DNA of 64,000 nt from the NCBI GenBank assembly GCA_041666205.1, contig JBAYHI010000003.1:13215-77214 (forward strand), written 5' to 3'. Shown in pieces: positions 2,904 to 61,189 of this stretch. Positions within the stretch are counted from its first letter, which is position 1. Each line of letters starts with the position of its first letter. A model generated the notes under the pieces. That model worked only from the letters and a program-made list of their open reading frames with translations. It searched no databases and was not told the origin of the DNA. This DNA is from Patescibacteria group bacterium (GTDB lineage: Bacteria > Patescibacteriota > Patescibacteriia > UBA9934). A program made the translations under genes and the position numbers.

Positions 2904-3476
2904 ATGGCACGCGACGCGCATAAACCGTTTCCACACGACAAGTATCTATACTGGTTCATCCAATGGATTCCCCGTTGGGTGGAGCCAAATCACATTACGC
3001 TTTTGCGTCTTATTTTGACGCCGTTTGTGATCATCTTTTTGCTGTACGAAAATTATGATGTGGGGGTCCCGCTCTTTATTTTCACTGCGCTTACCGATGC
3101 GGTGGACGGCACCTTGGCACGCATGCGAAAGCAAGTCACGCCGTGGGGAATTTTCTACGATCCGGTGGCGGATAAGATTCTTATTGGCTCCGTGGTATTG
3201 CTCGTGGTGATTCAACACATCAATTTCTATATTGCTATTGGAATGGTTGCCGTGGAACTCATGCTCATTATTGGGGGATGGTATCGTCGACGCAAAACCC
3301 ATATTGAATCCGCTAATATTTGGGGAAAAATAAAGATGATTCTGGAGGTGATTGGCGTCCTATGCCTTCTCATTGCGCTTTGGTCTGGGGTAGATCTTTT
3401 TGTTCAAATTTCTAACGGGACGCTCATCGTGGCACTCCTATTTGCCATTGTATCGCTTTTGACCTACTCTCTTTGA
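2904..3476 (+). CDS. CDP-alcohol phosphatidyltransferase family protein
   Basis: Motif 'DAVDGTLAR...GIFYDPVADK' (D-G-x2-A-R...G-x3-D-x3-D). First in-frame ATG (2904) lies after the convergent upstream gene end; multi-TM. Confidence 0.8.
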   Translation: MARDAHKPFPHDKYLYWFIQWIPRWVEPNHITLLRLILTPFVIIFLLYENYDVGVPLFIFTALTDAVDGTLARMRKQVTPWGIFYDPVADKILIGSVVLLVVIQHINFYIAIGMVAVELMLIIGGWYRRRKTHIESANIWGKIKMILEVIGVLCLLIALWSGVDLFVQISNGTLIVALLFAIVSLLTYSL

Positions 3477-3479
3477 GGT

Positions 3480-5075
3480 ATGGCACTGCGAATTCTCAAA
3501 ATCATTGGGCTTTCTCTTTTTTTCGTTTCGTGTTTTACCACCACATTTTTCGTGGGGCATCTTGCCAATTCGCCCGATGAATCGGCAAATTATTTATTTG
3601 CCTCGCAAATTGCAAACGGAAATGCAATGCGTTTTTCTGAGCCTCTTGAGGCGAGTTTGGGGAATCTAATTCATCCGCGCAGTATGGTTGCAGTCGGGGA
3701 GTTTATCGTGCCTGGGAGTTTTTTGGGATTGCCGGTACTTGCAGGAATCATGGGAATAGGTTGGAAGGATGGTGTTTATTTGCTTACCCCGCTTCTTGCC
3801 GTGCTTGCGATTCTTGCGTGGCGAAGTTTTGTGAAAAACCTATTCGCAAATGAACTCCTCGCTGATCTTTCTGCATTTTTTCTGGCCATCCACCCGGCAT
3901 TTTGGTATTACGCTGGTAGGCCCATGATGCACAATGTGGGATTCCTAGCATTTTTGATTTTTGCCGTGTGGGCAATTGGCGTGCGACCCATTAAGGAAAA
4001 GTGGACGATCCTTAATTTTGTGCTCGGAGGCGTATGTTTGGCTTGGGCCTTGGCATTTCGAACTGCGGAAGCGGTTTGGGTTTTGCCAATTGCGCTTGCG
4101 ATCCTTGCCGTGATTTGGAAAAAGCATGTTATTTCGTGGAAGCAACTCCTTGGTGTTGTGGTTGGATTTGTGATTGTGATCCCGCCATTTTTGTGGCTCA
4201 ACAATTCGCTCTACGGAAGCCCATGGCTCACAGGCTATACCATGCCGAGCACAAGTGTGGTCACGTCAGACGCTCCTGCGGTTGCGGTTTCTGTTATTAC
4301 AAAGATCGCGAGTCTCGTTTTCCCATTTGGGATTCACGAGATGAATATTTTGCAAAATGGATGGTCGTATGGATTTTTGCTGTACCCGATTCTCACCCTG
4401 TTGGCACTCCTTGGGATTGGACTCGTTTTTGCGCGTTGGAAGCAGGAAACTGCCACATGGCGGTTCCTCCTTATTATAGGGGGTCTTATTTTGGCTTGGT
4501 TACTGGTCGTTTACGGCAGTTGGAAATTTAATGATAACCCTGATCCGCTGGTGCTTACGATTGGAAATTCGTATGTACGATATTGGCTTCCGATTTTTGC
4601 GATCGCTTCTGTTTTTGTTGCAAAAGCTGTGCAGTGGATTTCTGATGTTCCATTCCCGCGTGTGAAAATTGGAATCAGTGTGGCGATCATGGGAGTTTGC
4701 ATTGGTGCATCAGCGTTCACGGTGTTTGGTGGCACGGATGGGTTCTTGGCGATTCGTACGCATCTTGCGGAAAGCGCACAGAAAAAAGAAGCAGTCCTCA
4801 AGGCAACGCCAAGCGATGCAATGATCATTACAGATTACGGCGATAAATATTTATTCCCAGATCGTCGGGTGGTGGTTCCGCTTCGAAGTGATGCAACATA
4901 TGCGATGCTCCGAAACCTCGTTGACGCCGCGCCGGTTTATTATTTCGGGCTCACGCTTCCCGATGGTGATGTGGATTATTTAAATACCACGATTTTGGGT
5001 CCGCAGGGGATTATCTTGGATCGTTCGATTACAATTCTTGACGAAACGCTCTATAAATTGCGCGACATGCGCTAA
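3480..5075 (+). CDS. GT-C superfamily membrane glycosyltransferase (ArnT/PMT-like, GT39/GT83-type)
   Basis: 531 aa with about 11 TM helices. First periplasmic loop has an acidic motif (PDESANY), as in ArnT/PMT-like enzymes. Confidence 0.6.
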   Translation: MALRILKIIGLSLFFVSCFTTTFFVGHLANSPDESANYLFASQIANGNAMRFSEPLEASLGNLIHPRSMVAVGEFIVPGSFLGLPVLAGIMGIGWKDGVYLLTPLLAVLAILAWRSFVKNLFANELLADLSAFFLAIHPAFWYYAGRPMMHNVGFLAFLIFAVWAIGVRPIKEKWTILNFVLGGVCLAWALAFRTAEAVWVLPIALAILAVIWKKHVISWKQLLGVVVGFVIVIPPFLWLNNSLYGSPWLTGYTMPSTSVVTSDAPAVAVSVITKIASLVFPFGIHEMNILQNGWSYGFLLYPILTLLALLGIGLVFARWKQETATWRFLLIIGGLILAWLLVVYGSWKFNDNPDPLVLTIGNSYVRYWLPIFAIASVFVAKAVQWISDVPFPRVKIGISVAIMGVCIGASAFTVFGGTDGFLAIRTHLAESAQKKEAVLKATPSDAMIITDYGDKYLFPDRRVVVPLRSDATYAMLRNLVDAAPVYYFGLTLPDGDVDYLNTTILGPQGIILDRSITILDETLYKLRDMR

Positions 5076-5076
5076 T

Positions 5077-6540
5077 ATGGGAACGCGCATTTTTCAACTC
5101 GTCCTCATTTGCATTCCGGTCGGGTTATTTTGCTATTTGCTTGGCGTGGACATTGCGCCAGGTGGCATGCGCGAAGCATCGCTCGTCGCCGGGGGATATA
5201 GCGCGTTCATCGATCGCTTGCTTCCAGATGAACGCGTGTCGAGCGTTGAGATAACAGAAGCCGGTGGCGCGTACGCTTCTCTTCTTGACGACCCGACGTA
5301 TTTCTCGGTTCACAAACCGCAAACGGATTTTTCGGAAATTGAGGTGGAGATTTTGTATCAAAGCGAGGGTCAGCCCCTCATTCAAACAGGGCCACGCCTC
5401 GATGTGGTTTCGGATAGTTATGCCCTGCAACCACTCGTGAGCGAGACTATTGAATCGCTTGGGTGGAGCGAGATCGAAGAAGACGGAGTTCGTCTTCTTG
5501 CGCGAAACGGAGATGTGTCGAGCGTGTCGGAATTTTTGTTCGATCTGCCAAGTCGATCACGCATTGGCGTGCTTGGGTATGAGCTCACAGCGCTATATCT
5601 CCTGCCAAATTATGCTTCGCTCGGGTACAGTCAAACGTTTGATGTGAGCTTGCGCGGATATCACAAATATGTGACGTACGTAAAAAATGAATCGTTTGAT
5701 TTGGATGCAACATATTGGGACATGAATCGTACGATTGGAAAAGACGATGCCATGGTGCGTGTGCGCAATTCCGCTGGTGAGGTTTGGTTTGAAGCGCCCA
5801 TCGAAGACGACGGAAATACCACGGAAAATCAAACACCGAGTTCAGAGACGATTTCCATTCATGAATCCGGTTGGCCAGAAGGCGTTTACTCCGTTGAATT
5901 AGTCGGTACCTCGGATATTTTTTGGCGCAAATTTGTGACGTCGGAGCGCTATATGACGTTTGTCTCCAAGATTTATATCGGCGATGATGTGGGATATTTG
6001 GGTGCTACAAAGGCAACGCGATTCTATACCAGCGCAAAGCACCTCGATTTGGAAACGTATCATGCGGACGCGACCCAAGAAGTCCAGCTTGGATCGTCAC
6101 GTGTCGCAATTGTCACGAGTCATGAGCCGGTGCACGCCGTCATTGCGGACGCTGGCGTCGTAGCCGGGTACACGGCGCAAGGCGACGTAAAAATTGTGGG
6201 CGACGGGAAATTCTCTTTCTCACGCGATTCATTTTTCGATCCAGACCCGGTGCAAATCGGCGCCGAAACCGATGTGGATGCACTAAACGTTGATTATATT
6301 CTCACGACGGTTGAGGATCCAACCATTGAAGGAGAATGGAGCGTTGCCTTAACGACGTTTTCAACCGAGGGGATTTGGGACGAAAACGGCGATGCTAAAT
6401 TTGTGCTTTCAATGCCGGCGATTCAAGAAAATGGTGGCACCGTAAAGATTCACGAGATTCGAATTCGTTTTCTCAAAGACCCTTTGAATTTTTGGGGAGT
6501 GATTCGAGCACTTCGTGATTTATTGCCGTTTGGAATCTAA
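5077..6540 (+). CDS. Hypothetical membrane-anchored protein (N-terminal TM, large extracytoplasmic domain)
   Basis: ATG at 5077 lies 2 nt after the upstream stop. N-terminal hydrophobic helix. No recognisable motif. Confidence 0.55.
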   Translation: MGTRIFQLVLICIPVGLFCYLLGVDIAPGGMREASLVAGGYSAFIDRLLPDERVSSVEITEAGGAYASLLDDPTYFSVHKPQTDFSEIEVEILYQSEGQPLIQTGPRLDVVSDSYALQPLVSETIESLGWSEIEEDGVRLLARNGDVSSVSEFLFDLPSRSRIGVLGYELTALYLLPNYASLGYSQTFDVSLRGYHKYVTYVKNESFDLDATYWDMNRTIGKDDAMVRVRNSAGEVWFEAPIEDDGNTTENQTPSSETISIHESGWPEGVYSVELVGTSDIFWRKFVTSERYMTFVSKIYIGDDVGYLGATKATRFYTSAKHLDLETYHADATQEVQLGSSRVAIVTSHEPVHAVIADAGVVAGYTAQGDVKIVGDGKFSFSRDSFFDPDPVQIGAETDVDALNVDYILTTVEDPTIEGEWSVALTTFSTEGIWDENGDAKFVLSMPAIQENGGTVKIHEIRIRFLKDPLNFWGVIRALRDLLPFGI

Positions 6541-7321: not shown

Positions 7322-7887
7322 GCTTATTTCACTGGAAAAAATTATCCTCTGAAATTAAAGCGGAAAATCCGTGGTGGAGCTATCGGGTTGACCGCTTTTT
7401 AGGTCCAAAAAGCAAAGAAGTGTCCTATCACAGCATGGAACATCCTGGTACGGTTGTGATTATTGGGCTGAATGCTGAGGGAAAGATTCCGCTCGTGCGT
7501 CAGTTTCGTCCTTTATTTGATGCGGAGTGTACCGAATTGCCCGCAGGTCGGATTGACGAAGGGCAAGCATTGCTCCAGGCTGCACGGATTGAGTTTGCGC
7601 AAGAGGCAAATTTTGCCGCAACGAAACTCTCGCAGATTGGGAAATTTATGGTTGCTCCTGGGTGTAGCAATGCGTGGGCGTTTGTGTTTTTGGCAACCGA
7701 TTTGGTGCCAGCAAACGATACCCCAGCCGATGAGATGGAAGAATTTGAACACATGCTCGCAACACCCGCGGAACTCGACACCCTGATTGCCAATGGTACC
7801 ATTCAAGATGGCGTTTCTATCACCGCGTGGGCTCTCGCAAAACCTCACATTTTAGCTCTACTTGACCAAGAAAACGCCACGCGCTAA
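7318..7887 (+). CDS. NUDIX hydrolase (ADP-ribose pyrophosphatase-like)
   Basis: Degenerate Nudix box 'AGRIDEGQALLQAARIEFAQEANF'. ATGA overlap with the HIT stop suggests translational coupling. Confidence 0.65.
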   Translation: MSLFHWKKLSSEIKAENPWWSYRVDRFLGPKSKEVSYHSMEHPGTVVIIGLNAEGKIPLVRQFRPLFDAECTELPAGRIDEGQALLQAARIEFAQEANFAATKLSQIGKFMVAPGCSNAWAFVFLATDLVPANDTPADEMEEFEHMLATPAELDTLIANGTIQDGVSITAWALAKPHILALLDQENATR

Positions 7888-7900
7888 GGTACTTGGTACT

Positions 7901-8911
7901 ATGAAAGTACTGGTAACCGGAGGCTGTGGGTTTATTGGTTCTCATTTCATCCGCACGGTTTTTGACCATCGCCCAGATTGGCAGGTCATTAATTTGGATG
8001 CGCTCACCTACGCTGGAAATTTGGCCAATACCTTGGATATTCAAACCCATCCACGGTATCGTTTTGTGTATGGATCCATTACGAATCGCGAACTTGTAGA
8101 AGCGCTCGTGCAGGAAGCGGATGCGGTTGTGAACTTTGCGGCAGAAACGCATGTGGATCGTTCCATTGTTGATAATGAGCCGTTCATCATGACCAATATT
8201 TTGGGCGTTCAGCGACTCATTGATGCATGCGTCAAATATGGAAAACGGTTTCATCATGTGAGCACCGATGAGGTGTTTGGACACCTGGGGCCAACCGACC
8301 CCAAATTCAATGAATCCACGCCCTACGCTCCACGCAATCCATATAGCGCTACAAAAGCTGCGTCTGATCATTTGGTACGCGCGGCCGTGGCAACGCATGG
8401 ACTTCGTGGAACGATTTCGAATTGCACAAATAATTACGGGCCTTATTTGTACCCGGAAAAATTCTTTGCGATTTCAATTACAAACTTGCTTCAAGGCAAG
8501 CCCATTATGATTTGCGGGAGTGGCTCGCAAGTTCGCGATTGGATTCAAGTAAAAGATCATGCGCTCGGCGTCTTGGCCATTTTGGAACGCGGTCGGATAG
8601 GGGAAACGTATATGATGGGCGGAAATTCAGAATTGAGTGTGGTGGAAGCGGGAAAAAAGATTTTGAATGTGATGGGATACGGAGAGGAGCATTTGCTATT
8701 GGTTGCGGATCGTCCGGGGCAAGATAAACGCTATGCAATCGACTATAGCAAAATCAAATCCGAACTTGGCTGGGAACCAACATATACGTTTGAAGAGGGA
8801 ATCCGCCACATGGTGCAGTGGTACAAACAAAACGAAGATTGGTGGAAACCTGTACGCGAAAGTTCTGGCTACCGTCGGTGGTATCGGATGCAATTTGGCA
8901 TTGATCCTTAG
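7901..8911 (+). CDS. rfbB: dTDP-glucose 4,6-dehydratase
   Basis: 'MKVLVTGGCGFIGSHF' Rossmann start plus the SDR 'YSATK' catalytic motif. Full-length similarity to RmlB. Confidence 0.92.
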   Translation: MKVLVTGGCGFIGSHFIRTVFDHRPDWQVINLDALTYAGNLANTLDIQTHPRYRFVYGSITNRELVEALVQEADAVVNFAAETHVDRSIVDNEPFIMTNILGVQRLIDACVKYGKRFHHVSTDEVFGHLGPTDPKFNESTPYAPRNPYSATKAASDHLVRAAVATHGLRGTISNCTNNYGPYLYPEKFFAISITNLLQGKPIMICGSGSQVRDWIQVKDHALGVLAILERGRIGETYMMGGNSELSVVEAGKKILNVMGYGEEHLLLVADRPGQDKRYAIDYSKIKSELGWEPTYTFEEGIRHMVQWYKQNEDWWKPVRESSGYRRWYRMQFGIDP

Positions 8912-8916
8912 CTCGT

Positions 8917-9025
8917 TATAAATTTCGACTGCTGCTTTGTCGCCTTCAGTCCGTTCTCCTCACCGTACACATGGGTACGGCTCGTCGGTACTCCTTCGGC
9001 TCCTCGCATCAGTCTGAAATTTATA
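8917..9025 (-). repeat. 109-nt element with terminal inverted repeats TATAAATTT/AAATTTATA, copy 1 (inverted relative to copy 2)
   Basis: About 80% identical to 34973..35080 in reverse complement. Fills the rfbB-rfbC spacer. Confidence 0.7.
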
Positions 9026-9044
9026 CACTCGCTGAATAAATGAT

Positions 9045-9587
9045 ATGAACATAATCCCCACAAAAATTCCGGATGTAAAAATCATTGAGCTTGATGTTTT
9101 TGGCGACGAGCGAGGATTTTTTTGCGAAACATTCAATGAAGAAAAATTTGCATCCGCCGGACTTCCAACGGATTGGAAACAGGATAATCATTCTGCATCG
9201 GTAAAAGGTGTTTTGCGCGGATTGCATTTTCAATTGCTTCCAAAGCCGATGGCAAAGCTCGTGCGTTGCACAAAAGGAAAAGTATTCGATGTCGCGGTGG
9301 ATTTGCGAAAGAGTTCGCCCACCTATTTGCAATGGGTCGGGGTAGAACTCTCAGCGGAAAATAAAAAAATGCTTCTTATCCCAGAAGGATTTGCGCATGG
9401 ATTCTATACGCTTGAGGATTGTGACTTCCTGTACAAGTGCTCCAACGTTTACGTGAAAGAACTCGATGCAAATGTTCGTTTTGATGATCCAGCGTTTGGC
9501 GTCGCGTGGCCACTCCAGGGCGCACCTGTGCTTTCAAATCGCGATGCCGCGGCGCCGGCGTTTTCAGAACTTGATTTACCATTCTAG
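9045..9587 (+). CDS. rfbC: dTDP-4-dehydrorhamnose 3,5-epimerase
   Basis: Cupin; 'DERGFFCETF...LRGLHFQ' matches the RmlC signature. Confidence 0.92.
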   Translation: MNIIPTKIPDVKIIELDVFGDERGFFCETFNEEKFASAGLPTDWKQDNHSASVKGVLRGLHFQLLPKPMAKLVRCTKGKVFDVAVDLRKSSPTYLQWVGVELSAENKKMLLIPEGFAHGFYTLEDCDFLYKCSNVYVKELDANVRFDDPAFGVAWPLQGAPVLSNRDAAAPAFSELDLPF

Positions 9588-21924: not shown

Positions 21925-21940
21925 TGGCGTACGATAAAAT

Positions 21941-21986
21941 AAAAAACCCTCCCGAAGCTCCGAAGGAGCGAAGGAGGGTTTTTTAT
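21941..21986. terminator. Bidirectional intrinsic terminator between the giant gene and rpmA
   Basis: 'aaaaaaccctcccgaagctccgaaggagcgaaggagggttttttattt': stem ccctcc/ggaggg flanked by an A-run and a T-run. Confidence 0.7.
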
Positions 21987-21990
21987 TTGA

Positions 21991-22272
21991 TTAAACCGCT
22001 TTGATAATTTCGACGAGCGTTTTCATGAACAGAGCGCCGTGGAAATTTGGAAGTTTTTTTTGTTTGAATTTGACCGTGCCGTTGACTGCGGCGTAGAGGG
22101 TATCGTCTTTTGCGCGGAGCACGTTTTTGCCTGGACGATATTTCGTGCCACGCTGTTTGATGATGATTTCGCCAGCACGCACAAGTTCGCCATCCGTCTT
22201 TTTCAGACCTAAGCGTTTTGCCACGGAATCGCGGCCATTACTGGTAGAACCTTGGGCTTTTTTGTGTGCCAT
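21991..22272 (-). CDS. rpmA: 50S ribosomal protein L27
   Basis: '[51 protein letters not shown]' is the L27 signature. ATG at 22272 is chosen over the longer ORF. Confidence 0.92.
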
Positions 22273-34607: not shown

Positions 34608-34683
34608 GCGGTAGTAGCTCAGTTGGTAGAGCATTTGCTTCCCAAGCAAAGGGTCGCCGGTCCGAATCCGGTCTACCGCTCCA
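34608..34683 (+). tRNA. tRNA-Gly (anticodon CCC)
   Basis: Acceptor gcggtag/ctaccgc, anticodon loop tTCCCaa, CCA encoded. Extended -10 'tgtTATAAC' (34589..34597) lies 10 nt upstream. Confidence 0.88.
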
Positions 34684-34972
34684 CCGAGCTTAGCTCGGTT
34701 TCTGTAAGATGATGGACGCTCAGCGTCCATCAAGGAAACAAAAAGTTTGCTAAGCTCGGTGGCCAGTCACGCTAAGCGTGACCACAAAGAAACCGAATTA
34801 CAGCGCTTAACGTTAGCCTCAGTTTGAGGTAAGTGTTCTTAAACAAGGTGAGCGTCTTGGATTTTACAGCCGGCTAGAAGAGAGATCGGTTTTCATGCCC
34901 ATTGTAAATTGCAAACCTGAAGGATTGCGTATAAATTTGGATAAAAAGCGCAGTTCTTGATAAGGTGAGCGT

Positions 34973-35080
34973 ATAAATTTTGGACTGATGCTAGGAGACG
35001 AGGGAGCGACGACGAGCCGTACCCAGATGTACGGTGAGGAGGCGCGCACCGAGGCGACAACGCAGCAGACAAAATTTATA
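34973..35080 (+). repeat. 108-nt TIR element, copy 2 (TATAAATTTT...AAAATTTATA)
   Basis: About 80% identical to the reverse complement of 8917..9025. Central hairpin ccgtac-N6-gtacgg. A partial TIR duplicate lies at 34927..34941. Confidence 0.7.
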
Positions 35081-35091
35081 GCGAACAATAT

Positions 35092-35167
35092 GCCATCGTA
35101 GCTCAGCTGGTAGAGCAATGCTTTCGTAAAGCAGAGGTCGGCGGTTCGAATCCGCCCGATGGCTCCA
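35092..35167 (+). tRNA. tRNA-Thr (anticodon CGT)
   Basis: Acceptor gccatcg/cgatggc, anticodon loop tTCGTaa, T-arm ggcggTTCGAATccgcc, CCA encoded. One A·G mismatch in the anticodon stem. Confidence 0.82.
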
Positions 35168-35279
35168 TCCCGTTAGAGATTAAGTAGATCAACATATCTG
35201 ATGTGAGACTAGTAACGTCGTTGCTACTCCCAGCTCAAAGCTGTTGGCCACTCTATCTCTAACGGGATCCATAACGTGT

Positions 35280-47631: not shown

Positions 47632-48096
47632 CTAGTTCCAGTCCCAGCCGTGTTCTTCCTCGGTCATTTCCGAGAGCTCACTGATATGTCGGTTACAGCG
47701 ATGGCACTGACCGTCGCAGGTCGACTTATCGCGGTCGGACGGAACTACGAACACGAGCGTTCCGCGCAGGAACTGCTGGAAAAGACCCTTGAGGAACTGG
47801 TCGTTGTCCAGCTCGCAGGTTTCTCCGCGGTCCTTGGACTCTCTCGCGAACTTCAGCACGTCGCTGATCGAGATGTTGAGTTCCCTCATCGTGAAGACGA
47901 AGGCGTGGAACGTCTCGATGTTCATGATGGTGGACCCCAGCGAGGCCAGGGCGTCCAGCAGGTTGAACAAGCTTTGGAGCTGTTCGTCACTCGCCTCCGC
48001 GACGAAGTTGAGGCTCGTGGGTGGCTCTCGGAAGAACACTCTCATGACGCGTGCTGTATTCTGCTCAAGCTTCTTCCGCTTCTTCGGATCGAACAT
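47632..48096 (-). CDS. Hypothetical protein in the high-GC island (154 aa) with C-terminal CxxC...HxC cluster
   Basis: ATG at 48096 preceded by AAGGAGGG with 7-nt spacing. The longer ORF start at 48153 is TTG. Confidence 0.5.
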   Translation of the reverse strand: MFDPKKRKKLEQNTARVMRVFFREPPTSLNFVAEASDEQLQSLFNLLDALASLGSTIMNIETFHAFVFTMRELNISISDVLKFARESKDRGETCELDNDQFLKGLFQQFLRGTLVFVVPSDRDKSTCDGQCHRCNRHISELSEMTEEEHGWDWN

Positions 48097-49291
48097 AACC
48101 GCGCCCTCCTTGGCGTTTCTAGTTGGAGCTCTTAGTACCTCGAATTGCTTCAAGGTTCCAGTTGAGCCCCCTAGAACACATCAGGCGATGCGGGCTAGGG
48201 AGAAGCTCGGAGTTGGCACTTTCGCAGCTCAGGCGAGTCTATTTTGTGGAAACGAGCGACCAACCTCGGTTTTGACCTTACGTGGACGCTTCGTGCATCG
48301 GTCAGTTGCACAAAGCGTTTCTCTCATCGTCACCTCGTGGTGAATGGTGAAGTAGATGCGAGATGGGCAAAGCACGTTGCCCGACAGAGTGTGAGCCCGC
48401 CCAGTTCTGGAGAGGCGCGGCTCATTGTTTACGATGGCGTGCTCCATCGGCCGGTTTTCTTGTCTTCCGCCCCGGCGAGCGGTTCTATATGAGGCTCAAT
48501 TCTTGATACCCCCTCCGGCGTATATGCCGGTTCGAAGTTCTCCGTCAGTTGTGGCTTCAGGCGATTTTGAATCGATGTGCCCGATGCCGTGAGTGAACGG
48601 AGAACGGTCTTGAGGACTAGCGACGAGTGTCGTGAGTCCTGTGGGACCCCCGAGACATGTTTTCACGCATGCTCAGGGAAGGGGTGAGGATCTGCTTCCT
48701 CAGGGCTCACCACTGCTTGCGGGCCAGGCAAGACGTACGGACAGGTGACTTCCGGATGCTTTGGTTTCGAGCCTAACGACGGTCCAGCGTATTGTGCTGA
48801 AGAATTCTCCATATCGGGATCGCTTCGTACTTGAGTTTCACCTCGTTCCTGACTCCCCGACACAAGAATTCGCATCTCCGCCGATTATTCTAACCCTCTC
48901 GAAAGGGCTTTTTAGTATTCCCAGGCGAATAATGTGACCTTACGGCCCCCGGGACACCAATTTCAACAGACCATTTCTTCCTTAATTTTCGAGCATCTCA
49001 CGTGTGCTCGGTATCGTTTTCCGAGTCGACTCGGAAAAATGAACGATTCTATTTTTTTGATGTACACCTCCCGGTTCGTTGTTTCGGTTGCGTGCGTAGA
49101 GCTATTTACGCAAACCACGACGGGTACATTGTACCTCCGTGTAGCACGCGTCTTCCGCGTGTGCTACGTGTTTTGGTTCTACAGTTTTTTGCCGCTGTAG
49201 TCCGGCAAAAGGTTCTTAAGGTCTCGCGGTGAAGCGGGACCCAGTCGAACCCCCAACTCGCGGTTTCATGCGCGGTTAGGGAAGATAGGGG

Positions 49292-49621
49292 CTAGTAGTT
49301 GTGGCCGAACGTTCGGCATCGGCGCATGGCGCCTTTGGCCCCGCGCCGGCGCGGGGAGAACCCGCACGCGTGGACGCGTTCGTCCGTCTCCACCGGCACC
49401 ATGAGCGCGGTGCCACCGTCGTCGGTCGAGACAAACTCGCCGACCACGGTCCCGGGGTTGGGAATTCGCGTGGCCCGCAGGCCGGGACGGAACTTCCCGT
49501 CGCCCTCCGGGATCATTGGCGTGAAATCCGACGCCGAGGTTTCCCCCGGCGCTTCGTACGTGGCGTCGACGGGGTTGCCGTCGGCGTCCGTGGCCTCGAT
49601 TCGAACGGTCTTCGTGGGCAC
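49292..49621 (-). CDS. Hypothetical protein (109 aa, GC about 68%)
   Basis: GTG start preceded by AAGGAGGGG with 5-nt spacing. Both strands carry long ORFs here because of the high GC, so the call is tentative. Confidence 0.35.
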   Translation of the reverse strand: MPTKTVRIEATDADGNPVDATYEAPGETSASDFTPMIPEGDGKFRPGLRATRIPNPGTVVGEFVSTDDGGTALMVPVETDERVHACGFSPRRRGAKGAMRRCRTFGHNY

Positions 49622-49938
49622 GGGCCCCTCCTTCGATGGTTAAGTTATGCGCACAAGCCTGGAGGTGAGTGCTACGCCAAAGCGTAGCGGCTCAGCACTC
49701 GTCTGAGCTATAACAGTGATTGCCGAAGCAATATGCTATACGGCACCCGGGTGTGTGCAGAAAGCAAGCCGGAGCCTGGTTCAAGCACTTGGGTACCAAG
49801 TCATTGTGTTATCGTCAGACGGAAATCCGACGACCAAAAACCCTACCTCCTCTCCCCCAGAGTTATGCGCACAAGTTGTAAAGATCACATCGAAGTTCAC
49901 AAATTTTTTGAACTTTGACGTGACCGCGAGATTTTTGA

Positions 49939-50376
49939 TTACTCGCTGGTAAGTTGGAATCCATTGGCGCGAAATCGTTCGCGTATGGCTTCCAGTTGCT
50001 CCGGGTATTTCTCCTTCATTTCCCGAAGCAGACGCTGTGCCGCCTCGTTGTAGGTTTCCATCCGAACCGTGTCTGGCGGTTCGAGGTGGATCCACAAGGG
50101 GACGGAGTCGAGATAAAAAGCGATTTCCGATAGCAGATAAGCTCTGCTGTCATATCGGGCACGAATACTCATCTCCTTGATTGAAATGCCCTTAGCTTTT
50201 TCTGGAAGCTGAATGGCAACCAATATGAAGATGATTCCCCATGCTCGACGTTCGGACATTGAAGTTTGTTTGAAGATCTCGACAAGGGTATCGATCATGA
50301 GCTTCTGAACCACGGATGCCTGAGGTGACACGAGTTTTTCAAGCTTTGTGCCCTGCATCATAATGAAATGAAGCAT
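49939..50376 (-). CDS. Hypothetical protein (146 aa)
   Basis: First ATG of a longer ORF (49939..50766). The upstream extension runs through a REP hairpin cluster and starts at TTG, so it is trimmed. Confidence 0.45.
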   Translation of the reverse strand: MLHFIMMQGTKLEKLVSPQASVVQKLMIDTLVEIFKQTSMSERRAWGIIFILVAIQLPEKAKGISIKEMSIRARYDSRAYLLSEIAFYLDSVPLWIHLEPPDTVRMETYNEAAQRLLREMKEKYPEQLEAIRERFRANGFQLTSE

Positions 50377-57871: not shown

Positions 57872-58027
57872 TTACTTTGTTTCTTTGTGACCGGTATGGG
57901 CTTTGCATTGCTTGCAGAACTTTTGGAGTTCCAAGCGAGTTTTGAGGGTTTTGACGTTTTTGTGCACGCGGTAATTCACGGTTTTGCACGTCGTACACTC
58001 CAATTTGATCATGTTGTCTTGTGACAT
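57872..58027 (-). CDS. rpmG: 50S ribosomal protein L33
   Basis: 'MSQDNMIKLECTTCKTVNYRVHKNVKTLKTRLELQKFCKQCKAHTGHKETK' is an L33 zinc-ribbon (CxxC...CxxC). Internal ATG chosen over the 96-aa ORF. Confidence 0.85.
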   Translation of the reverse strand: MSQDNMIKLECTTCKTVNYRVHKNVKTLKTRLELQKFCKQCKAHTGHKETK

Positions 58028-58188
58028 AGGGATTGTTTGAATGGGGGAAGTGTACGTAATCGCGGCAGTTTTGTCAATTCCCGCAGGGGCTTGGATTGAC
58101 AAATCGCCATTTTTTTGATAGTTTTTTCGGTTCCTCGAGTGAGGACAACAGGTCATTCCCACTAGATTTTTCTCCGCGGAGGTTTGAA

Positions 58189-59256
58189 ATGCAGTCCTAC
58201 ATCCAGTGCGTGCCCGGGAACCACAACCGGTGCGAGGCGCAGGGGCACGGGAAGCGTCTTATCCGGGATGGAACGTGTTCGATTGGTCGGGCCTGGGCGT
58301 TGCGCGCCCTGCCCTGCGCCGGGTGTGAGATGCTGGTGCCCGCGCACCTCGGAAAGCGCGTGAATCCGGCGTTCGTGGTTGCGATCGCGGGGGTCGGGAA
58401 CATCAAGGTCGCGCCCGGAGCATTCATGCTCTACGCGGCCGTCACCGTCGACCCCGAGGCGCGCTTGTGCGACGAGTGCGCGGAAAAGCTCGCGAGCGCT
58501 GTGCAGAACGGCTCGGGGAAGCCCGGGTTCGTTCATCTCGGTTCGCAGGTCGTCCCGCTTCTCATGAGCCCCACGACTGCGCAGACCGAACTTGCGCGCT
58601 GTGAGGAGGCGCGGGCCCTGGAGCGCGCCGAGCGCGTCCAGAAGATCGTGGCGCTCGTCGAGCGAATTCGCGCGGGATCTCAGGTCGCATTCGCGCGCAA
58701 GATGCGCGAGGGCGGTGAGCTTTGGACCGAATGCACGACGCACCGCAACACGCCCGACGGCACGTGCTTTGACGATGAATCCGCTCACTACGGCTACGCC
58801 AACTGGCACGAGATGCCGTCGATTCGCGCCGACAACAAGGTCTTCGGATTCTGCCCGACTTGCGCCAAGGAAGCGAAGGGCGCCGGCGTGGAGTTCAACG
58901 GCATGATGGCCGCGCTCGTCGCGCAGGTGCAGAATTTGCCCTACACGAATCCGAGCGATCGGGGGCGGAGTGGCAACACTGCGCTTGGTCACATCACGAC
59001 CGTGGACGAAGCTTCGCGTGAGATTGGGGCGCGTCTCACGCTTGCTCAGAAGTCCGATGGTCAGCGGGACTGGGTCGCACGGAATTTCGAGTTCGGTGCG
59101 ACCGGGATGGGGCGGAAGCATCGCGTGACGCGCAAGCCCGTACAGCTCTCGCCCGAAGAAATCGAGCGTCGTCGGGCCGAGCGCGCGAAGCGCAAGGCCG
59201 ATGAGAAGAGACAGCAGAAGAAGGGGGGAGGCGGCAACAAGAAGAAGGGCCGCTAG
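58189..59256 (+). CDS. Hypothetical high-GC (about 66%) protein with multiple CxxC zinc-ribbon-like motifs and a Lys/Arg-rich C-terminal tail
   Basis: ATG at 58189 preceded by GGAGGT with 5-nt spacing. Composition differs sharply from flanking genes. The opposite-strand 369-aa ORF looks antisense (R/L/A-rich). Confidence 0.55.
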   Translation: MQSYIQCVPGNHNRCEAQGHGKRLIRDGTCSIGRAWALRALPCAGCEMLVPAHLGKRVNPAFVVAIAGVGNIKVAPGAFMLYAAVTVDPEARLCDECAEKLASAVQNGSGKPGFVHLGSQVVPLLMSPTTAQTELARCEEARALERAERVQKIVALVERIRAGSQVAFARKMREGGELWTECTTHRNTPDGTCFDDESAHYGYANWHEMPSIRADNKVFGFCPTCAKEAKGAGVEFNGMMAALVAQVQNLPYTNPSDRGRSGNTALGHITTVDEASREIGARLTLAQKSDGQRDWVARNFEFGATGMGRKHRVTRKPVQLSPEEIERRRAERAKRKADEKRQQKKGGGGNKKKGR

Positions 59257-59362
59257 TCCCTCGTATCCCACCTCACGCGAGGTGGGCTCAAGTCCGCAGC
59301 AACGTCACCGGTGGTGGCCTTGTCTGCGGGCTTTTTGGTTTGTTGTGAACAGATCAAACGCG

Positions 59363-59368
59363 TATAAT
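59363..59368 (+). promoter_or_regulatory. -10 box TATAAT 6 nt upstream of the ATG at 59375 (leaderless-type)
   Basis: Same arrangement as at 27843, 36454 and 50993. Confidence 0.5.
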
Positions 59369-59374
59369 GCGAGT

Positions 59375-61189
59375 ATGCACGTACATATTTGGCGATGGTT
59401 TTTTTGGTCTGGCATCCTCTTTATTGTCTTGGGAGGCGTGTTTGCGATTGGTCTTACGCTTGGGCTTATTTGGAAAAATGAGTTTGAGCTTCCGGTGCGC
59501 GAAGTAGGACCCCTGTATTCCTCGGGATTGCAAACGAAAGATTTTTTTGATGGTGCGTATGCAGCTGCGGAGCCAGGTGATTCGGTTTCGGTTGTGAGCG
59601 CAGTATCAGCGCATCATCTTTTGGTTGCAAAAGAGATTGCTTCGCTTTTTGAAACGATTGGTTCGGGGAGTGTCAAAACCGTCATTGTGGTGAGCCCGAA
59701 TCATTTTGATGCTGGTGTTCACCCCGCGCAGGTTTCATTCGGAAATTGGGAAACGCCGTATGGCATGGTGGAATCTTCCACGAAAGCGCGTGTGCTTGCA
59801 AATCGTGGTGGGATCGTTTGGAATGAAGAAAAAGCATTTGAACAAGAGCATGGTATTGGAGCACTCACGCCATTTGTCGCGCATTCATTTCCAAACGCGA
59901 AAATCATTCCGCTCGTGATTGATGATTCGCTCACCGCGGATGAAGCAAAGGTTGTTGCGGGCGAACTCTACGACGTTGCGCCCGACGCCATTCTGATTGC
60001 GTCCTCTGACATGTCGCACTATTTGCCAAGTTTGGCGTCGGATTACCACGACGAGGTGACGGAGAATTGCTTGGCGCGTGGAATTGCGTGTTTAGAAAAT
60101 TTGAATTTGGAAGTGGATACAAATGCCGTGCTTCAGGTTTTGGGTGAGTGGAATCGTTTGCAGGGCACGCAAGTGTGGACGCAAACCTATCACGGCAATT
60201 CGCTTGCCATGGGCATTGGCGACGCAGCAGAAGAAAATACAAGCCATATTCTGGGGTACTTTACAAAAGGTGCGCCGGTGACGTCACCCTCGGCTTCCAT
60301 TCATTTCGTTGGTGACATTATGCTTGATCGTGGTGTGCGAAAAGCAATCGATGCAGCCGGTGGCGACCCGAATTTTCCCTGGCAGCACGTGATGCGCTTT
60401 TTGCAAGGATCAGATTTGCGCGTTGGCAACCTGGAAGGAACCGTGAACGAACAACAAAGCACCTATACCTACGATCCGCCATTTCGATTTGTCTTTTCGC
60501 CAAGCTATGTGGAAGCAATGAAACCATTCATCGACGTGGTATCGCTTGCCAATAATCACGTCTGGGATGTGGGCAGTGCTGGGGAAACTGAAACGCATAC
60601 CTGGCTGGATTCCATGGGCATTCCGTGGTTTGCTTCGTATAAATCGCCAGTGCCACGCTACGACCAAGATATTAACGGAATCCCGATTACGCTCATTGGC
60701 TATCATTCATTCCAGCCCGACGAGGATTTACTGCTGGAGACGATTGCAACCGCACAAAGTGATGGGCGATTTATCATCGTCATGCCACATTGGGGCGTTG
60801 AATATGAACATCAACCGCAAACCGCACAACGGGCACTGGCTCAGAAAATGATCAACGCTGGCGCTGACCTTATTATGGCCGGTCACGCACATGTGCCAGA
60901 GGGGATTGAAGTCATCGACGGCGTGCCAGTTCTTTACTCGCTTGGGAATTTCGTTTTTGATCAACAGATTCCGGAAACCTGGTCCGCACTCACGGCTGGA
61001 GTGATTATCACGGATGAAAAAATCGAAATTAACCTCCTGCCAGTGGACGTCAGTTTGAAAGCGCCAAAGCCGATGGAGGGCGATAAAGCCACCGCACTCC
61101 TCAAACACCTTGCGGAGTATTCCGACGACGTGCTAAAAGAACAAATAATTAATGGCAAACTAATTTTTGACCGATATGAAACAAACTAA
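59375..61189 (+). CDS. Fusion protein: N-terminal TM + Memo-like (AmmeMemoRadiSam system protein B family) domain + C-terminal CapA/PGA_cap metallophosphatase-like domain
   Basis: Memo-like 'VVSPNHF...HGIG...SSDMSHY'. CapA-like 'SLANNHVWDVG...GHAHVPEGIEVIDGVPVLYSLGNFVFDQ'. Confidence 0.6.
   Translation: MHVHIWRWFFWSGILFIVLGGVFAIGLTLGLIWKNEFELPVREVGPLYSSGLQTKDFFDGAYAAAEPGDSVSVVSAVSAHHLLVAKEIASLFETIGSGSVKTVIVVSPNHFDAGVHPAQVSFGNWETPYGMVESSTKARVLANRGGIVWNEEKAFEQEHGIGALTPFVAHSFPNAKIIPLVIDDSLTADEAKVVAGELYDVAPDAILIASSDMSHYLPSLASDYHDEVTENCLARGIACLENLNLEVDTNAVLQVLGEWNRLQGTQVWTQTYHGNSLAMGIGDAAEENTSHILGYFTKGAPVTSPSASIHFVGDIMLDRGVRKAIDAAGGDPNFPWQHVMRFLQGSDLRVGNLEGTVNEQQSTYTYDPPFRFVFSPSYVEAMKPFIDVVSLANNHVWDVGSAGETETHTWLDSMGIPWFASYKSPVPRYDQDINGIPITLIGYHSFQPDEDLLLETIATAQSDGRFIIVMPHWGVEYEHQPQTAQRALAQKMINAGADLIMAGHAHVPEGIEVIDGVPVLYSLGNFVFDQQIPETWSALTAGVIITDEKIEINLLPVDVSLKAPKPMEGDKATALLKHLAEYSDDVLKEQIINGKLIFDRYETN

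Follow-up and report, generated by a model that had tools for sequence, protein, structure and literature searches.

What kind of sequence can occupy both the junction between two genes of a biosynthetic operon and the space immediately in front of a tRNA gene? The question is raised by two copies of a 109-nt repeat in a 64,000-nt stretch of Patescibacteria contig JBAYHI010000003.1 (positions 13,215 to 77,214), referred to below as the window, where one copy lies between rmlB and rmlC and the other precedes a gene for tRNA-Thr. The original prediction, made from the sequence alone, regarded the repeat as resembling a miniature inverted-repeat transposable element (MITE) or, alternatively, as a small structured RNA. 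The two copies are probably non-coding, non-autonomous palindromic insertion elements, which are MITEs of the Rickettsia palindromic element (RPE) or ERIC type in their behavior, and a rough probability for this reading is 0.7. The family to which they belong is apparently undescribed and is spread across the Patescibacteria, or candidate phyla radiation (CPR); a full-text search of open-access papers and preprints retrieved nothing that describes such an element from CPR genomes.

The pattern TATAAATTT-N(80-110)-AAATTTATA matches twice in the window and in none of 100 dinucleotide-preserving shuffles. As predicted, the two matches (Table 1) are both 109 nt in length, are in opposite orientation and carry a perfect 9-bp terminal inverted repeat. 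When compared as reverse complements the copies are identical at 91 of 110 aligned columns (83%, close to the 80% initially estimated), and identity rises to 86% when the flanks, which are themselves similar, are included in the alignment. The copies share a mismatch-free 30-nt block, CCTCACCGTAC-NNN-TGGGTACGGCTCGTCG, and each has the predicted long imperfect stem and central hairpin CCGTAC-N6-GTACGG (8963-8980 in copy 1 and 35017-35034 in copy 2). All four strands of the two copies fold into one long imperfect hairpin (z-scores of -3.5 to -6.5), and none of 200 shuffles was as stable. In the following, R denotes the purine-rich strand reading CGAGCCGUAC...GUACGGUGAGG and Y its pyrimidine-rich complement. 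For copy 1 the folding energy is -40.5 kcal/mol on the minus strand (z = -6.5) and -33.1 kcal/mol on the plus strand, and for copy 2 it is -37.2 kcal/mol on the plus strand and -30.5 kcal/mol on the minus strand. Copy 1 is not an assembly artefact, since its sequence is identical in three independent assemblies (SRR6484324, JGI 3300037810 and SRR18595301), of which JGI 3300037810 also contains a relative, L038.

The boundaries first proposed for the element required revision. Copy 2 starts at 34972 rather than 34973, and copy 1 does not exactly fill the rmlB-rmlC spacer, which at 133 nt (8912-9044) is longer than the 109-nt unit. The 9-bp repeat is real but is not the boundary of the element, as the hairpins of both window copies continue beyond it with two further 2-bp segments separated by a tandem G.A mismatch, which gives full units of approximately 8911-9032 and 34964-35090. 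On the R strand, the outer stem of copy 1 extends the 9-bp A/T repeat by GC-GA-GU(G) / AC-GA-GC, and the corresponding stem of copy 2 is GU-GA-GC / GC-GA-AC. The left end of copy 1, GCTCGTT, overlaps the final base of the rmlB stop codon and recurs in two loci from other genomes (L017 and L044), a third (L045) having GCGAGTT; the full hairpin of copy 2 stops 1 nt before tRNA-Thr. What characterizes the family is the conserved central hairpin and not the 9-bp TATAAATTT repeat, which is merely the form that a covarying stem takes in this lineage.

Searching one genome per species (GTDB) with the exact tip pattern CCTCACCGTAC-N6-GTACGGCTCG identified 34 further loci. In all loci the tip, which reads CGAGCCGUAC-N6-GUACGGUGAGG on the R strand, tops a hairpin of 110-130 nt whose arms differ in sequence but stay complementary, and the full-length element is an imperfect palindrome of ~122-127 nt that has no open reading frame (ORF) of its own. 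A covariance model of the element recognized 46 copies in the window plus the 34 loci (318 kb) and 5 more in loci added later, for a total of 51 copies, all of them from ~350 kb of sequence chosen for holding a copy; the density in the window is 2 copies per 64 kb. An exhaustive (filters-off) search of the window with the model found only the 2 copies, the weaker matches being unrelated hairpins. The tip pattern had no match in viral contigs, which gives no support to a phage origin. A metagenome scan with the lineage-specific tip returned one locus, L042, which has a full copy at 98-225, an adjoining 70-nt 'mini' version at 1-70 with the compensated tip CCGTAT...ATACGG, and a solo left end at 268-292, 40 nt downstream of the full copy. 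The mini version and the solo end suggest size variants and decay products.

Most of the 34 loci are labeled Parcubacteria/Paceibacterota, Uhrbacteria, Nomurabacteria, Saccharibacteria, Peribacteria, Minisyncoccia, 'Patescibacteria group' or just 'bacterium', and the nearest named relatives of the RmlC encoded in the window are Uhrbacteria. The remaining six (L006, L008, L015, L030, L031 and L033) are titled 'uncultured Gammaproteobacteria', a label that sequence comparison suggests is doubtful for at least one of them, L033. The RpoB encoded beside the L033 copy has 1085 residues and aligns in one piece with RpoB of Firmicutes, cyanobacteria and actinobacteria, whereas with the 1342-residue E. 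coli RpoB it aligns in four fragments only and with a lower score. For a 528-residue protein from L006, a homologue search of 5.8 billion sequences matched only the protein itself.

That the element inserts is seen most directly at the rmlB-rmlC junction. Five relatives in which RmlC is 64-73% identical have the same HIT-NUDIX-rmlB-rmlC-rmlD-PEGA gene order, and in all five either 1-3 nt separate rmlB from rmlC or the two genes have 4 nt in common. Alignment of the junction places ~130 extra nt in the window, and an exhaustive (filters-off) model search of 75.7 kb from four of the syntenic relatives found no copy. Copy 1 was thus inserted where rmlB and rmlC had been tightly joined. The comparison of spacers proposed in the original prediction (no more than 3 nt or an overlap in five of five relatives versus 133 nt in the window) thus supports its claim of a miniature mobile element inserted in the rml operon.

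Insertion is also evident within protein-coding genes of Saccharibacteria metagenome-assembled genomes, where the element occurs in frame in fpg, polA and dus with Y as the sense strand. In the L017 fpg gene, residues 1-75 and 152-332 of the product align to residues 1-79 and 93-272 of a solved Fpg, and the element encodes residues 78-120. The L007 dus gene is interrupted in frame in a like manner, and the element-encoded peptide L-x-P-H-R-T-x-x-Y-G-S-V is common to these otherwise unrelated Fpg and Dus proteins. Among Fpg orthologues that are 66-83% identical (P0122-P0241), some have no insert after the sequence 'LIWRG' (P0136, P0155, P0173, P0224 and P0226), and others are longer by 35-60 residues or carry a further peptide of element origin at the C-terminus, such that Fpg length among the listed Saccharibacteria orthologues ranges from 282 to 445 residues. 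The extra length is S/T/P/R-rich element-derived peptide, located after 'LIWRG' and at the C-terminus, and P0137 and P0205 have ~100 further residues of repeats. At the nucleotide level the fpg site is filled in L017, L044 and L045 and empty, at the same codon, in L043 and L046, and the covariance model recognizes the fpg inserts of the filled loci. Likewise, polA of L045 has a 54-residue in-frame insert that is missing from polA of L044, the proteins being 82% identical. L045 by itself (region of note, 5001-6266) accounts for three copies within genes, two of them in fpg and the third in polA.

The rmlB-rmlC, fpg and polA sites therefore all show presence/absence polymorphism among orthologues. 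Truncated solo ends occur in L042 and in the window, where the extra partial end reported at 34927 proved to be a real copy of GCGTATAAATTTGGA (34927-34941) and is a remnant or partial duplication. The original prediction had considered that only two copies genome-wide, together with a conserved position in relatives, would favor a cis-regulatory or non-coding RNA role over mobility; the element instead forms a multi-copy family found in both orientations and in unrelated contexts. Of the features expected of a generic prokaryotic MITE, the element has small size (below ~500 bp), no coding capacity, multiple copies, terminal inverted repeats and insertion polymorphism.

The structure of the element is maintained by covariation. 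A consensus obtained with RNAalifold on a sequence-only MAFFT alignment of 11 copies, the same alignment from which the covariance model was built, has 47 pairs, 36 of which show compensatory double changes. In this alignment 89% of cells are paired, compared with 70% after shuffling and 35-39% when partners are slid by 1-3 columns. The covariation score is 0.552 versus 0.187 for shuffled alignments (none of 500 reached the observed value) and 0.09-0.11 with partners slid by 1-3 columns. Thirteen of the 51 copies lack the exact tip, and most of these keep GAG-NCGUA...UACGN-UGA with compensated stem changes (e.g., ACGUAG/CUACGU, CCGUAU/AUACGG and CGAAUA/UAUUCG), indicating that the tip is conserved as both sequence and structure. 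The seeming invariance of the tip in the first 38 copies is due to ascertainment.

The two strands differ in how well they fold. R forms the more stable fold in each of 37 copies compared, on average by 15 kcal/mol, and on the model-based alignment R has 164 G-U against 33 A.C oppositions as well as 173 purine-purine against 36 pyrimidine-pyrimidine mismatches. Purines make up 81% of its internal loops (45% A and 36% G). Tandem mismatches of the symmetric 5'-GA/3'-AG type are found repeatedly, one just below the tip and one or two in the arms, and the window copies have an additional tandem G.A mismatch at the helix base. In copy 1 the 6-bp stem of the tip is followed by a G-U pair and then by a tandem 5'-GA/3'-AG mismatch that a C-G pair closes. 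Conservation extends to several of the G-U positions (e.g., alignment columns 22/112, 33/100 and 56/75). Intragenic copies keep both the hairpin and the asymmetry, with R versus Y energies of -52.4/-36.7, -66.6/-52.6 and -55.9/-50.1 kcal/mol. This asymmetry is what is expected of a single-stranded nucleic acid, either RNA or single-stranded DNA (ssDNA), under selection. It is unexpected for a protein-binding site in duplex DNA, and the compensated tip variants also argue against a duplex operator.

The genes that adjoin the copies are mutually unrelated housekeeping genes (nrdJ, gyrA, nusA, cca, efp, purH, rpoB and murC), and an all-against-all BLASTP comparison of 302 ORFs from 34 loci revealed no recurrent neighbor, with no protein family present in more than 4 loci. 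Two copies lie upstream of the class II ribonucleotide reductase gene nrdJ (L004 7546-7672 and L011 3779-3904; NrdJ 78% identical) and another 14 nt upstream of rpoB (L033 848-975); these may reflect positional conservation or insertion hot spots. Orientation relative to the host genes is biased. Of 19 copies between co-directional genes, 16 have Y as the sense strand (p = 0.004), as do all six intragenic copies, and R is on the locally C-rich strand in 35 of 46 copies. Per copy, Y has 1.35 stop codons and 1.9 open frames compared with 4.07 stops and 0.78 open frames for R, which is also rich in AUG and GAGG motifs. The simplest account of the bias is a filter acting after insertion, in which copies that place the strongly folding, stop-rich R strand in an mRNA are lost. 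An alternative is strand-specific insertion tied to replication, and as gene direction and GC skew are confounded the two accounts are not separable.

Taken as an insertion element, the repeat would be copied in trans by an enzyme that recognizes the single R strand folded as a hairpin, for which the G-U(T) wobbles, the several tandem G.A mismatches and the tip GAG-NCGUA...UACGN-UGA may serve as recognition features. The R strand could be handled as ssDNA by an HUH/Y1 (RayT/IS200-like) enzyme, or there could be an RNA intermediate. A host filter on orientation would then spare copies that have Y as the sense strand, since Y, with its few stops, few start or Shine-Dalgarno-like motifs and a fold that is ~15 kcal/mol less stable, can be read through or even translated. 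Copy 1 is likely part of the rml transcript, in which its hairpin (roughly -33 kcal/mol) would uncouple rmlB and rmlC and might provide a substrate for double-strand RNases. Copy 2, if co-transcribed, would form the 5' leader of pre-tRNA-Thr.

Several observations weigh against this account. No transposase or parent insertion sequence (IS) was identified, and the 34 loci contain no long element bounded by the ends of the repeat, as a parent autonomous IS would be. Flank comparison at rmlB-rmlC, fpg and polA gave no clear direct repeat that could be a target-site duplication; a TA duplication is not callable, as the ends are TATA and the flanks are too diverged or too palindromic. Copies in one genome are often no more alike than copies from different genomes (83% for the window pair), so there is no sign of a recent burst. 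The conservation of the tip is partly a matter of ascertainment, as 38 of the 51 copies were found or selected via the exact pattern, and functional RNAs typically have conserved G-U positions and tandem G.A motifs such as those seen here. The nrdJ-upstream copies of L004 and L011, and those at the fpg site in L017, L044 and L045, show compensatory differences, and compensatory change at possibly orthologous sites would fit selection for the hairpin in place, i.e., a host function. Diverged copies within genomes together with compensated differences at shared sites could mean that the elements are old and under selection for the hairpin, or that hot spots receive repeated insertions. Finally, the association with Y1_Tnp (RayT/IS200-like) genes amounts to one neighboring gene in L010 and one in L041 (410-958) that is unlinked to any copy, which is no enrichment, and a tblastn search with the L041 protein found one homologue near a copy, that of L010. 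The L010 gene (3616-4299, minus strand) is ~540 nt from a copy at 2947-3073, with a 159-nt inverted repeat (3081-3239) and a terminator-like hairpin (3243-3284) between them, and as a single case it is a candidate for the mobilizing enzyme.

It is because of the within-genome divergence and the compensated differences at shared sites that a host RNA function and a broader single-strand system are kept under consideration. According to the latter idea, which we regard as tentative and rather unlikely, the family is the footprint of a Patescibacteria-wide system that recognizes a single-stranded hairpin. The R hairpin could be the substrate of a dedicated enzyme for RNA-mediated or HUH-type copying, which to our knowledge has been described for no MITE, or it could have been domesticated as a general RNA-processing or insulator module in RNase-poor genomes. 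Compensatory evolution at the nrdJ-upstream and fpg sites and the conserved tip across CPR classes are compatible with such a system.

Features of the window that concern the two copies are listed in Table 1. The flanking genes are those originally named, and tRNA-Thr follows the 109-nt unit of copy 2 at the predicted distance; rmlD is a further flanking gene in the operon that holds copy 1.

Table 1. Positions in the window of the two copies, their parts and the adjoining genes.
Feature	Position	Strand	Remarks
rmlB, dTDP-glucose 4,6-dehydratase	7862..8911	+	upstream of copy 1; TIGR01181, 423.6 bits
Copy 1, full hairpin	8911..9032	-	covariance-model match 8909-9033, E = 3.5e-6
Copy 1, 109-nt unit	8917..9025	-	R strand = minus; Y strand co-oriented with rmlB and rmlC
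Copy 1, conserved tip	8958..8987	-	R strand CGACGAGCCGUAC-N6-GUACGGUGAGG
rmlC, dTDP-4-dehydrorhamnose 3,5-epimerase	9045..9587	+	downstream of copy 1
tRNA-Gly(ccc)	34608..34683	+	upstream of the spacer with copy 2
Solo R-strand 5' end, GCGTATAAATTTGGA	34927..34941	+	42 nt upstream of the same sequence in copy 2
Copy 2, full hairpin	34964..35090	+	covariance-model match 46.8 bits, E = 2.7e-9; predicted fold
Copy 2, 109-nt unit	34972..35080	+	R strand = plus, co-oriented with the tRNA genes
Copy 2, conserved tip	35010..35039	+	CGACGAGCCGTAC CCAGAT GTACGGTGAGG
tRNA-Thr(cgt)	35092..35167	+	immediately downstream of copy 2; starts 11 nt after the 109-nt unit

Other hairpins are present in the window. 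One at 34678-34767 starts inside the 3' end of tRNA-Gly and has energies of -47.7 and -53.3 kcal/mol on its two strands, and another at 35167-35270 begins at the tRNA-Thr 3' end, its outer stem being a perfect 12 bp (CCCGTTAGAGAT/ATCTCTAACGGG). Both are unrelated to the element in sequence, and with copy 2 upstream and the second of these downstream tRNA-Thr has long hairpins on both sides. A ~108-nt hairpin at 59526-59633 shows strong strand asymmetry (-44.7 kcal/mol on the plus strand and -23.5 kcal/mol on the minus strand); it is without the CCGTAC tip and perhaps represents another family of hairpins. At 21932-21994 there is a textbook example of an intrinsic terminator that is bidirectional, AAAAAACCCTCCC...GGGAGGGTTTTTT, from which it follows that the organism has canonical terminators distinct from the element. 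Local G+C content is 0.556 at 48001-50000 and 0.577 at 58001-60000 against a background of ~0.48.

Among explanations that dispense with mobility as the identity of the element, the one that survives best, although it appears improbable, is a host cis-acting RNA module (a dispersed terminator, insulator, RNase III site or 3'-end stabilizer) that is selected site by site after genes and between tRNAs and for which mobility is incidental. Such a module would account for the compensatory maintenance of the hairpin, the nrdJ-upstream position common to L004 and L011 and the other long hairpins that adjoin the same tRNAs in the window. It would likewise account for the copies that begin 0-5 nt past a stop codon or flush with a tRNA end, as many do (L018, L019 twice, L024, L029 twice and window copy 2). 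Most members have an A-run and a U-run at the stem base like those of bidirectional terminators, and many copies in other genomes have A4-5/U4-5 at the stem foot. A consensus scan for intrinsic terminators (a G+C-rich stem with a U-run 0-2 nt behind it) nevertheless found none at either window copy, as AAA separates the U-run from the G+C stem; this negative is confined to the two window copies. Copies moreover lie in frame in fpg, polA and dus, genes that a terminator or a cleavage site would destroy, and copy 1 sits inside an operon whose genes overlap in relatives. The more stable strand is antisense in 16 of the 19 tandem contexts, and a terminator gives no reason for a tip that is conserved in sequence.

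An independent family of small structured RNA genes, in which the R strand is transcribed from its own promoter and acts in trans with a protein partner, is very unlikely. At the level of structure the RNA alternative offered in the original prediction is compatible with the data, given the covariation, the conserved G-U pairs, the tandem and presumably sheared G.A mismatches, the purine-rich loops and a tip conserved across CPR classes on one specific strand. The idea of a separate gene fares poorly, since the folded strand is for the most part antisense to its neighbors (within coding sequence in six of six intragenic copies), no promoter signal accompanies it, some copies are embedded in ORFs, and syntenic relatives lack the element. 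Sigma-70-like promoters are not enriched upstream of R (mean best score of 7.1 versus 6.7 on the other side) or of either strand, a consensus scan found none at the two window copies, and copy 1 has just 12-19 nt of spacer on the upstream side of its R strand. The suggested check against Rfam did not yield a family for the element. With Rfam 15 at the gathering score the window matched tRNAs only, nothing lay over the tip around copy 1 at E values up to 10, and nothing lay over the element in 8 loci at E values up to 1. DicF (14.4 bits, E = 1.4) overlaps only the left end of copy 1 and is a chance-like match.

An ssDNA recombination site of a known class, either a REP/REPIN mobilized by RayT (a Y1 HUH enzyme) or a site like the attC of integrons, would specify how the element moves without giving it a different identity, and the probability of such a class assignment is slight. 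A strand-specific hairpin with mismatches is what such a site would have, R is on the C-rich (template/lagging-sequence) strand in 35 of 46 copies, and Y1_Tnp genes exist in CPR genomes (L041 and L010). There is, however, no conserved 5' GTAG, the two Y1 genes are not bracketed by copies, and the attC R''/R' boxes (RYYYAAC / GTTRRRY) are not conserved. Variable ends with a conserved center are the reverse of attC, and the copies are found among housekeeping genes instead of in cassette arrays.

The remaining candidates can be dismissed briefly. TIGR loci are tandem arrays beside a Tas (Nop-domain) gene, with two 8-12-nt spacers in loops and box C/D flanks, whereas the element is solitary or loosely clustered, almost fully helical and without a common neighbor gene. 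Group II intron domain V (GAGCCGUAU...GUACGGUUC) does not fit, as there is no 2-nt bulge or GNRA loop, the length is ~125 nt and the A of AGC faces G. The GAAA-like bases of a hammerhead core (CUGAUGA...GAAA) are paired in the stem and not conserved, the tandem G.A pairs lie in symmetric 2x2 loops without the 3-nt bulge of a box C/D kink-turn, and the apical loop is variable and diagnostic motifs are missing for SRP RNA, 6S RNA and the sarcin-ricin loop.

Patescibacteria, which represent much of bacterial diversity and whose genomes measure ~1 Mb, have been considered poor in repetitive or selfish DNA, a view that the present family alters. By filling spacers, abutting tRNAs and lengthening Fpg, PolA and Dus with S/T/P/R-rich loops, the element affects gene calling, comparison of protein lengths and structure prediction in these genomes. 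It provides an independent second example, after Rickettsia, of palindromic selfish DNA inside protein genes, the hosts in both cases being reduced bacteria that depend on other organisms. The conserved tip and strand-specific folding of the hairpin also offer a handle on how orphan palindromic elements, RPEs included, move, and the covariance model could be used to mark lineages and to probe metagenomes for insertion polymorphism between strains.

Among known systems, the element is filed as a new family of small palindromic bacterial repeats, outside any named family, and comparison with other such repeats is by behavior. The folded strand invites comparison with two systems based on ssDNA. 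REP/REPIN-RAYT sequences are likewise hairpin-forming, strand-specific, non-autonomous, long-persisting and thought to move as ssDNA, and RayT-like Y1_Tnp genes are present in CPR genomes as in REP/REPIN systems. The element differs in that it has no GTAG at the foot, is conserved at the tip and not at the foot, and is 3-4 times longer, and no REPtron arrangement was seen, the Y1_Tnp genes of L010 and L041 not being flanked by copies. Integron attC sites, which are 60-140 nt in length, are likewise imperfect palindromes whose start coincides with or overlaps a stop codon, with a recombining folded strand that is antisense to the genes and arms in which structure is conserved above sequence. 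The element departs from attC in its conserved center, its housekeeping neighbors and the absence of R''/R' boxes, cassette arrays and an integrase, and its ends (e.g., TCAAAAC/GTTTTGA, AAAATGG/CCATTTT and TATAAATTT) do not correspond to attC core sites.

Closer in behavior are the small palindromic repeats that include ERIC, Correia and RPE. ERIC is said to have been described by Hulton and coworkers in 1991 as an imperfect palindrome of ~127 bp with a conserved central inverted repeat. Like the element, ERIC/IRU sequences of Enterobacteriaceae and Vibrionaceae occur in both orientations in transcribed intergenic regions and occasionally within genes, but there is no sequence relationship, the frequent in-frame copies and the association with tRNA ends are not typical of ERIC, and ERIC has a TA duplication whereas the flanks of the element have no clear direct repeat. 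ERIC folds in mRNA and affects transcript stability, and Correia hairpins are cut by RNase III and modulate neighboring genes (reviewed together with RPE and other small palindromic bacterial repeats in PMC10969869). The Correia/NEMIS repeats of Neisseria are short MITEs whose inverted repeats produce long RNA hairpins when co-transcribed, and as such they are a model for the possible role of copy 1 in the rml transcript. Their 26-bp terminal repeats are conserved, in contrast to the variable ends of the element, and they come with a TA duplication, an IHF site and promoters, whereas no promoter was detected for the element.

RPEs insert in frame into housekeeping genes with the ORF kept (PMC10969869), as the element does in fpg (L017, L044 and L045), dus (L007) and polA (L045). 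Both are palindromic non-coding repeats of ~100-150 bp in the small genomes of host-dependent bacteria, with no transposase known, and both are dispersed between genes and repeatedly found in frame in unrelated housekeeping genes to which they add a peptide. The likeness drawn here is one of behavior, the hosts being Patescibacteria for the element and the unrelated Rickettsiales for RPEs. Unlike RPE, the element combines a conserved center and covarying arms with an RNA-like strand rich in G-U and tandem G.A pairs, and it is distributed over many CPR classes as opposed to one genus.

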